DNA of 64,000 bases from the sequence record OL631481.1; one strand, 5' to 3'. The notes under the pieces were generated by a model that saw only the letters and a list, made by a program, of their open reading frames with translations, was not told where the DNA came from and did not search any database. Source of the DNA: Escherichia phage ECML-183-2. Every line of letters begins with the position of its first letter. Position 1 is the stretch's first letter. Both the position numbers and the translations under genes were made by a program. Below, piece by piece: positions 43,256 through 43,341 of the stretch.

Positions 43256-43341
43256 TGGCGATGAGTATAGGATTTGAACCTATATCGTTCTTTCGAACAC
43301 GGATTAACAGTCCGCCGCTTAAACCATTCAGCCAACTCATC
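43256..43341 (-). tRNA. tRNA-Asn (anticodon GTT) with expanded 15-nt variable region
   Basis: Anticodon arm GCGGA-CTGTTAA-TCCGT as recalled for E. coli tRNA-Asn; extra hairpin GTTC-GAAA-GAAC in variable region; encoded CCA. Confidence 0.5.

Follow-up and report, generated by a model that had tools for sequence, protein, structure and literature searches.

Long variable arms are restricted in the textbooks to the tRNAs for Ser, Leu, Tyr and Sec, in which it plays a major part in identity and recognition. Why, then, should a tRNA with an Asn anticodon carry one? The question is raised by a tRNA-Asn(GUU) gene in a stretch of 64,000 nucleotides (nt) from Escherichia phage ECML-183-2 (sequence record OL631481.1), which was analyzed here over its whole length and is referred to below as the window. 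An original prediction had described the gene as an 86-nt tRNA-Asn(GTT) with a 15-nt variable region that forms its own hairpin, and had proposed covariance-model scoring as a check. ARAGORN called a tRNA-Asn(gtt) with exactly these ends, 43256-43341, adding only that the gene lies on the minus strand. The Rfam model RF00005 agreed, with a score of 62.0 bits against a gathering score of 29; model positions 1–71 were fully covered, and the alignment placed a 12-nt insertion in the variable region.

The RNA reads GAUGAGU-UG-GCUGAAUGGUUUAAGC-G-GCGGACUGUUAAUCCGU-GUUCGAAAGAACGAU-AUAGGUUCAAAUCCUAU-ACUCAUC-G-CCA, which amounts to 86 nt with the encoded CCA counted in. Its minimum free energy (MFE) fold is a cloverleaf with an extra hairpin in the variable region. 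The parts of the gene are as follows:

43256..43341, minus strand: tRNA-Asn(GUU) gene, 86 nt with CCA (ARAGORN, Rfam RF00005 and the tRNA-Asn annotation in near-identical phages)
43335..43341, minus strand: 5' strand of the acceptor stem, GAUGAGU, paired to ACUCAUC at 43260-43266, with G1-C72 and A2-U71 (sequence)
43317..43332, minus strand: D arm, GCUG-AAUGGUUU-AAGC, with three Watson-Crick pairs plus G13.A22, and with G18 and G19 present
43299..43315, minus strand: anticodon arm, GCGGA-CUGUUAA-UCCGU, with the anticodon at 43306-43308 (alignment to E. coli asnT)
43284..43298, minus strand: variable region, GUUCGAAAGAACGAU, 15 nt (sequence, MFE fold and covariation)
43287-43298, minus strand: variable hairpin, GUUC-GAAA-GAAC, with a 4-bp stem (sequence and MFE fold)
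43284-43286, minus strand: unpaired GAU, 3 nt, 3' of the variable hairpin (sequence)
43267..43283, minus strand: T arm, AUAGG-UUCAAAU-CCUAU (Rfam and 20-sequence alignment)
43256..43259, minus strand: discriminator G73 (43259) and encoded CCA (43256-43258) (sequence)

The predicted hairpin, GTTC-GAAA-GAAC in DNA letters, was thus found both in the sequence and in the MFE fold. With a variable region of at least 10 nt that forms a stem-loop, the molecule has the architecture of a class II tRNA. Its anticodon, GUU, places it outside the isotypes of that class, which are Ser, Leu and Tyr in bacteria, or Sec.

A BLAST search with the 86-nt query matched 715 phage records, 225 of them at a coverage of at least 80%, and 37 phage records were at least 99% identical over the tRNA-Asn of the window. 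Homologues were found in Stephanstirmvirinae and in T5-like and T4-like phages, with arms that differ in sequence. In phi92 (Justusliebigvirus) the arm is GAAC-GAAA-GUUC, which is the window stem with two pairs flipped; in Epseptimavirus it is AUCC-GCAA-GGAU, in Tequintavirus AKFV33 it is GUC-GAAA-GAC, and in T4-like Klebsiella and Enterobacter phages it is GUCA-GAAA-UGAC. A Proteus Novosibvirus also bears a long-arm tRNA-Asn. When 20 sequences were aligned, the variable stem was paired in 98.6% of the cells of the alignment and showed compensatory double changes at all four of its pairs. This support equals that of the acceptor, D, anticodon and T helices (the acceptor helix was 99.3% paired, with double changes in 7/7 pairs). 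For the whole structure, 96.9% of cells were paired, compared to 71% in shuffles and 34–50% when the partners were slid. The original prediction had offered an insertion and a structural variant as alternatives. Because the arm covaries, occurs in several phage families and exists in 83 distinct viral versions (described below), it is best described as a conserved structural variant and not as a sporadic insertion. On this comparative evidence, the extra arm is conserved and very probably selected, rather than a one-off insertion or part of a pseudogene.

The wider distribution was obtained by scanning for exact matches to a pattern made up of the consensus Asn anticodon arm, a gap of 16–24 nt and a T-loop. 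In IMG/VR, 114 stretches matched. ARAGORN called 117 of 119 candidates as tRNA-Asn(gtt), with lengths of 79–91 nt. There were 83 distinct long-arm sequences, which fell into 35 clusters at 80% identity; this set also counts the sequence of the window itself and a few taken from loci in the phage records. A variable hairpin was present in 80 of the 83, with a mean of 3.2 bp compared to 1.0 ± 0.14 bp in shuffles. Its loop was of the GNRA type in 55 of the 80 hairpins, 43 of these being GAAA, and the geometry was uniform throughout the family, with 0–1 nt unpaired on the 5' side and 3–4 nt unpaired on the 3' side.

The same pattern matched 25 stretches in 185,579 bacterial and archaeal species (one genome each), most of them in tRNA arrays, phage-like clusters and pseudo-tRNA repeats. 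The matches in Saprospiraceae metagenome-assembled genomes (six loci) were no long-arm tRNAs, being tandem repeats of ≈128 nt that each consist of the 5' two-thirds of tRNA-Asn and unrelated sequence. These repeats (e.g., locus positions 5469-5811) lie upstream of an intact 75-nt tRNA-Asn and resemble the scars of serial integration or a family of repeats. The clearest cellular carriers were Micromonospora and Verrucosispora chromosomes, in which arrays of 32–36 tRNA genes include a tRNA-Asn(GUU) of 90 nt whose variable region is long, presumably as a unit of a mobile tRNA array. A BLAST search for the long-arm variant in complete E. coli genomes found it in none of 5,426. By these scans, the long-arm tRNA-Asn is recurrent in phages and almost never found in cellular genomes.

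Within viruses, long and normal tRNA-Asn could be counted in two T-loop subsets, which gave 13 vs 30 (30% long) and 7 vs 102 (6% long), the normal-length counts including host genes at prophage ends. Among the other class-I isotypes, 26 of 965 distinct phage tRNAs (2.7%), sampled from viral loci not chosen for a long arm, had 10 nt or more in the variable region, most notably those for Ile(UAU) and Thr. At 6% and 30% compared to 2.7%, Asn is therefore enriched, yet not unique. The premise of the original prediction, that long arms belong to the tRNAs for Ser, Leu and Tyr only, thus holds for cells but fails for phages. The hairpin-bearing variable regions seen in Cys, Thr, Ile(UAU) and His tRNAs often had GNRA loops and the same geometry of 0–1 and 3–4 unpaired nt, and several long-arm Ile(UAU) tRNAs shared an AGAUUAG-like loop.

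Is the molecule still a tRNA for Asn? For comparison we used asnT of E. coli MG1655 (K-12; NC_000913.3), which is 76 nt long and has the variable loop AUGUC. The phage tRNA is identical to asnT over 19 nt, CGGCGGACUGUUAAUCCGU, corresponding to positions 25–43 (window 43299-43317, with C25 and G26 included), which bears out the anticodon-arm match that the original prediction had stated. The two also have G73-CCA in common, while the acceptor, D and T arms differ. Asn identity in E. coli resides in the anticodon and G73 (PMC9976931). Both elements used by the E. coli asparaginyl-tRNA synthetase (AsnRS) are present in the window tRNA, G34-U35-U36 at 43306-43308 and G73 at 43259. As GUU is accompanied by G73 in 75 of 77 long-arm viral tRNA-Asn sequences, Asn identity seems to be retained, and the sequences also show the same spread of U1-A72 and G1-C72 as normal viral tRNA-Asn. 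Leu and Tyr identity in E. coli require A73 (PMC9976931); the window tRNA has G73, and its U36 departs from the GUA anticodon of Tyr. In E. coli tRNA-Ser, G1-C72 and G2-C71 are invariant, and recognition leans on the size and orientation of the arm (PMC9976931). The window tRNA has G1-C72 but A2-U71, although G2-C71 is present in some of its T5-like relatives. The arm of long-arm tRNA-Asn is not of the Ser type in size or orientation, insofar as the geometry of the unpaired nucleotides can stand in for a structure as a measure of orientation.

The shape of the arm led to the same distinction. Phage tRNA-Ser arms have stems of mostly 4–7 bp with 1 unpaired nt on the 3' side, those of tRNA-Leu 3–5 bp with 2 nt, and those of tRNA-Tyr 3–4 bp with 3 nt, while the arms of long-arm tRNA-Asn have 3–4 bp with 3–4 nt. 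Because both its stem lengths and its 3' unpaired nucleotides come closest to those of phage tRNA-Tyr, the Asn arm is Tyr-like in shape and un-Ser-like. The tRNA bodies, compared with the anticodon arm and variable region left out, gave a different kinship: in 26 of 77 cases, the closest neighbor without a long arm was a normal tRNA-Asn (background 6%); Ser gave a minor signal (13/77), and Tyr accounted for only 2/77. Since the bodies are nearest to normal tRNA-Asn, the simplest description would be a class I tRNA-Asn with an added arm, and not a remolded tRNA-Ser or tRNA-Tyr. Comparison of the 75-nt tRNA-Asn of Kuttervirus Maynard with that of phi92 showed a clean 10-nt hairpin indel in the variable region. 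We also considered an origin by anticodon shift, which had some initial appeal: the tRNA-Ser of the window is also 86 nt long, and the Tyr and Asn acceptor stems of the window differ at a single pair. A shift from the adjacent Ser(GCU) through C35U was rejected as the general origin because Ser was nearest in 13/77 cases only, compared to 26/77 for normal Asn. A shift from the adjacent Tyr(GUA) through A36U and A73G was rejected in the same sense because Tyr was nearest in only 2/77, and the acceptor stems of the phi92 Tyr and Asn tRNAs are unrelated.

We consider it very probable that the gene encodes a working Asn-decoding tRNA with a selected arm; its expression and its charging with Asn are what we infer. 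The full explanation that we favor, a functional Asn tRNA whose arm alters recognition by host proteins, plausibly in evasion of nucleases, is more tentative and has in our judgment somewhat less than an even chance of being right in its entirety. A short, GNRA-capped hairpin would have been inserted between variable-loop positions 44/45 and 46 of an ordinary tRNA-Asn body, producing a class II-like shape. The host AsnRS would charge the phage tRNA by reading the anticodon and G73, and the tRNA would decode AAY codons, which are heavily used by this phage of 39% GC. The arm would leave the parts needed for charging, modification and decoding untouched, and would be kept by selection, most likely because it changes how host tRNA-binding proteins see the molecule. 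Its most plausible specific role would be to shield the tRNA from defense nucleases that cut the anticodon stem of host tRNA-Asn, beside the point where the arm exits; that nuclease evasion is indeed the purpose of the arm is possible, and is proposed here with reserve. The original prediction had likewise suggested that the variant could alter recognition by synthetase or nuclease.

Such nucleases exist. E. coli tRNA-Asn(GUU) is a secondary target of AriB, the effector of the PARIS system, which makes its nick in the anticodon stem, between 40 and 41, and requires elements outside the anticodon arm; in an AlphaFold 3 (AF3) model, the AriB dimer spans from 40/41 to positions 16/17 in the D-loop (PMC12409363). 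The OLD protein of phage P2 also cuts tRNA-Asn (PMC12445682). Steric shielding is plausible because the variable arm emerges directly 3' of the strand that is cut by AriB. The paper on PARIS nowhere mentions the variable arm (PMC12409363).

The T5-like phages are dimorphic at the tRNA-Asn locus, having either a mutated anticodon stem with a normal loop, or a host-like stem with an arm. The tRNA-Asn of T5 itself (NC_005859.1 33952-34029) is 78 nt long, with a normal variable loop and the diverged anticodon stem GCAUC-UUGUUAA-GUUGA; this allele (T5/BF23/Bas31) was found in 152 records and is often overlapped by a homing-endonuclease open reading frame (ORF). In AKFV33 and Bas26, the tRNA-Asn is 83 nt long, with the extra arm and a host-like anticodon stem. 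The T5 tRNA-Asn helps to neutralize PARIS (PMC12409363) and is the only phage tRNA-Asn that has been tested by experiment. As an orthologue with the same arm it was ruled out by its length of 78 nt and its normal loop. In addition, nine viral contigs carried a long-arm Asn tRNA with the consensus stem together with a second Asn tRNA of normal length and diverged stem. The dimorphism and the double carriers would fit two alternative routes of escape, on evidence that is anecdotal and comes from sequence sets chosen on the consensus stem.

Several observations weigh against the favored explanation. Class II synthetases of the AspRS/AsnRS type approach the tRNA from the side of the variable loop, as in complexes of aspartyl-tRNA synthetase (AspRS) with tRNA, and we have assumed that the arm is compatible with AsnRS. 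Covariation only tells that an existing hairpin must stay paired, which implies no positive function. Close relatives in Kuttervirus and T5 lack the arm, and the other class-I isotypes in which long variable regions were found are not known nuclease targets. The window tRNA-Asn retains the AriB site U36AAUC↓C41 (the arrow marking the cut) and U16 as in E. coli, with none of the substitutions at or around 39–41 or at U16 that would mark it as anti-PARIS. The anti-PARIS effect of the T5 tRNA-Asn cannot be transferred to the long-arm molecule, because the T5 allele is a different one with a normal loop. Phage Bas34 (SelmaRatti, MZ501103.1 72604-72680) has a tRNA-Asn of the long-arm type, with U32 and a mismatched acceptor stem, GGGUCGU vs ACCCGCU; its own tRNA-Asn was insufficient against PARIS (PMC12409363). 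Judging from the broken acceptor stem, this gene is probably dead, which would explain the result and makes it uninformative about the arm.

A broader form of the nuclease explanation, possible but in our view rather doubtful, would make the variable-loop hairpin a general viral armoring of class I tRNAs against nucleases that grip the anticodon stem and the core (PARIS AriB and Toprim nucleases of the OLD type, for example), mainly in the case of Asn and, to a lesser degree, in those of Thr, Ile(UAU), Cys, Glu, Trp, His and Met. If true, armoring would be an alternative to the known mutation of the anticodon arm, one that spares the anticodon stem-loop, the synthetase identity elements and the modification determinants. 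It would also explain why such arms are common in phages and mobile tRNA arrays and nearly absent from cellular tRNA-Asn genes, as well as the either/or alleles of the T5-like phages and the phages that have both.

The hairpin might also be tolerated in the variable loop without any dedicated function, selection only keeping it paired and capped by a tetraloop; at most, the arm would then steady a tRNA that is A/U-rich and weak in its D stem. Long variable arms pose no obstacle to the ribosome or EF-Tu in class II tRNAs, and tolerance would be consistent with the clean gain or loss between relatives (Maynard vs phi92, T5 vs AKFV33), with the thin spread of similar hairpins over many isotypes, and with the 3-bp D stem, the G13.A22 pair and the A/U-rich stems of the window tRNA. 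It accounts less readily for the survival of the arm through ≈25% sequence divergence and in unrelated phage families, for the uniform geometry of 0–1 nt 5' and 3–4 nt 3', for the enrichment in Asn (6%, and 30%, in the countable subsets) over other class-I tRNAs (2.7%), and for the near-absence from cellular tRNA-Asn genes, which should tolerate the arm equally well. We regard simple tolerance as the next most likely explanation, though less likely than not. Alternatively, the arm could serve as a handle or mask for another tRNA-binding factor, e.g., a processing or modification enzyme (m7G46, acp3U47), or, in a variant of the same idea, as a self/non-self mark that spares the phage tRNA while a phage activity degrades host tRNA. 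The arm does take the place of the normal 5-nt variable-loop context, GNRA loops (55/80) are common docking motifs for protein and RNA, and the association of tRNA-Asn with the tRNA-like element RNA3 in T5-like and phAPEC8-like phages (see below) hints at specialized RNA processing. However, no candidate partner protein was found, the flanking genes being hypothetical, and the hairpin sequence varies beyond the stem and tetraloop; that only these are conserved argues against sequence-specific recognition of the arm, and we consider a role of this kind quite improbable.

Three further alternatives carry little weight. Acting mainly as an uncharged decoy or competitive inhibitor, the molecule would soak up an anticodon-arm nuclease with an exact copy of the host anticodon arm. 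The two arms are indeed identical, and the authors of the PARIS study speculate that overexpressed viral tRNAs compete for AriB (PMC12409363). The retention of G73 in 75/77 sequences, Asn-typical 1-72 pairs, intact and covarying acceptor stems and an encoded CCA nevertheless indicates aminoacylation and use in translation, making a decoy very unlikely. A switch of identity, in which the long arm and G73 recruit seryl-tRNA synthetase (SerRS) or another synthetase for class II tRNAs and AAY codons are partly read as Ser, is very unlikely indeed. SerRS ignores the anticodon and uses the long arm and G73 (PMC9976931, PMC7609411), the tRNA-Ser(GCU) of the phage has the same length of 86 nt, with a 15-nt variable region and a 4-bp stem capped by GAAA, members from T5-like phages have G1-C72, G2-C71, C11-G24 and G73, and nematode nev-tRNAs and allo-tRNAs provide precedents at other codons. 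Yet the window tRNA has A2-U71 where the tRNA-Ser of E. coli has an absolutely conserved G2-C71, the arm is Tyr-like (3–4 unpaired nt on the 3' side and 3–4-bp stems, compared to 1 nt and 4–7 bp in Ser), G73 rules out an identity of Leu or Tyr, the bodies go back to tRNA-Asn and not to tRNA-Ser or tRNA-Tyr, and misreading of Asn as Ser across the proteome would be costly. Hardly credible, finally, is a pseudogene, an annotation artifact, or an intron-like insert that is removed to leave a tRNA of normal length. Neither ARAGORN nor Rfam asks for proof of function before accepting a long insert, and degenerate tRNA-like sequences occur in the same cluster and in Bas34, but the helices are all intact and covarying and the hairpin is maintained in 83 distinct versions. 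We know of no bacterial mechanism that would excise a 10-nt hairpin from a variable loop.

The setting of the gene is that of a phage tRNA cluster. The window is 97–99% identical to phAPEC8-like coliphages (myophages; Phapecoctavirus, Stephanstirmvirinae), in which the gene is annotated as tRNA-Asn. The minus-strand cluster around it comprises 11 tRNA genes at the Rfam gathering score, together with degenerate tRNA-like sequences, and the genes flanking tRNA-Asn encode hypothetical proteins. Two features upstream of tRNA-Asn bear on its expression:

43351..43435, minus strand: tRNA-Tyr(GUA), 9 nt upstream of tRNA-Asn (Rfam, 39 bits; missed by ARAGORN, annotated in related phages)
43755..43784, minus strand: candidate sigma-70-like promoter (TTGACA-18-TAGATT, TG present), lying upstream of the Ser-like/Ser/Tyr/Asn/Thr stretch (consensus scan)

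Because tRNA-Tyr ends only 9 nt upstream on the same strand, a dimeric Tyr-Asn precursor is likely, the spacing suggesting co-transcription. The promoter is a candidate only, since the sigma-70 consensus scan of the region gave no more sites than expected from shuffles. The G+C content of the window is 39%, and in a crude set of the longer ORFs 5.8 of every 100 codons are for Asn, which fits the usual supply role of phage tRNAs.

Between tRNA-Asn and tRNA-Thr, at ≈43170-43248 on the minus strand, lies a tRNA-like element that carries no annotation. Its acceptor has 7 bp (GGACUUG/CGAGUCC), and its GCAGG-UAUCGAAUC-CUGC resembles a T arm. By alignment, the element is homologous to the T5 "rna3, putative tRNA-like RNA". 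The RNA3 element also follows tRNA-Asn in phi92, AKFV33 and T5, and an Asn-RNA3 module is therefore common to unrelated phage families. Another sequence, at 43656-43746 on the minus strand, is 91 nt long and resembles tRNA-Ser(UGA), with a CCA end and an aberrant D arm. It was called neither by ARAGORN nor by the Rfam tRNA model; its best Rfam match, with 37.4 bits where the gathering score is 47, was tRNA-Sec, and its phi92 homologue is annotated as a pseudo tRNA-Ser(TGA). Instead of a dead tRNA, the window sequence could be a non-canonical one. A weak tRNA-like match between tRNA-Met and tRNA-Ile (42231-42299, minus strand), which at 28.8 bits falls short of the gathering score of 29, probably represents a degenerate tRNA, while a weak match to the RyhB model over a terminator-like hairpin where the tRNA cluster ends (42005-42059, minus strand; 29.4 bits, gathering score 55) most likely arose by chance.

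The tRNA-Thr(UGU) of the window (43090-43164, minus strand) reads U36AAUCC41, with a U31.U39 mismatch. In E. coli, tRNA-Thr(UGU) shares its cut site with tRNA-Lys, U36AAUC↓A41, and changing A41 to C in tRNA-Lys strongly lowers cleavage by AriB (PMC12409363). There was no convincing enrichment of tRNAs targeted by AriB (Lys UUU, Thr UGU) among the direct neighbors of long-arm tRNA-Asn. The neighbors follow lineage, e.g., Asp and Cys in the T5-like phages.

Taken together, the data describe a large, diverse and virus-specific set of Asn tRNAs with a selected arm, including those of T5 relatives, T4-like Klebsiella and Enterobacter phages, phi92 and phAPEC8. In reviews, class II still comprises Ser, Leu, Tyr and Sec alone. 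We found no account of long-arm tRNA-Asn in phages in a literature search whose full-text part did not reach the T5 tRNA sequencing papers of the 1980s, and individual cases may have been noticed in print before. The set offers a testable handle on how the tRNA core is read by AsnRS and by defense tRNases (PARIS, OLD and others). It points to a possible second route of phage escape from tRNA-targeting immunity, of relevance to phage therapy strains of these genera, and could supply natural scaffolds for engineered orthogonal or tagged tRNAs. Even if the arm were neutral, annotation expectations would be corrected: such genes should not be flagged as pseudo by tools or curators.

Compared to E. 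coli tRNA-Asn(GUU) (asnT/U/V/W), the window tRNA has the same anticodon, the 19-nt identity in the anticodon arm, G73 and CCA, and thus the same AsnRS identity set, as well as the same loop determinants for Q34 and t6A37. It differs in length (86 vs 76 nt), in its 15-nt, hairpin-bearing variable region in place of the 5-nt loop AUGUC, in having G1-C72 instead of U1-A72, and in its D and T arms. With the bacterial class II tRNAs (Ser, Leu and especially Tyr), it shares a long variable region with a tetraloop-capped stem-loop, and with bacterial-type and phage tRNA-Tyr an arm stem of 3–4 bp with ≈3 nt left unpaired on its 3' side; the D stem of the window tRNA is 3 bp long. Unlike these tRNAs, its anticodon and discriminator specify Asn, it lacks the A73 of Leu and Tyr and the G2-C71 of Ser, and its body is Asn-like. 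Nematode nev-tRNAs (PMC3333845) and allo-tRNAs (PMC5389517) likewise combine a long variable arm with the anticodon of a class I amino acid, but are charged according to the arm (with Leu, Ser or Ala) and recode codons, whereas the phage tRNA keeps the Asn set and is without Ser, Leu or Tyr determinants.

The T5 tRNA-Asn, which acts together with T5 tRNA-Lys and tRNA-Thr against PARIS/AriB (PMC12409363), is the experimental precedent for a phage tRNA-Asn that matters against a tRNA-cutting defense. It resembles the window tRNA in its GUU anticodon, equivalent locus and adjoining RNA3, but has 78 nt, a normal loop and a diverged stem, while in the window type the host stem is retained and an arm is present in addition. 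With the nuclease-evading tRNAs of mycobacteriophages (PMC10264068) and the T5 tRNA-Lys, the likeness is one of proposed logic, decoding being kept while a host tRNase is escaped. Those tRNAs mutate the anticodon loop or stem; in the molecule described here, the anticodon stem-loop is unchanged and the variable region is altered, and evasion is only proposed.

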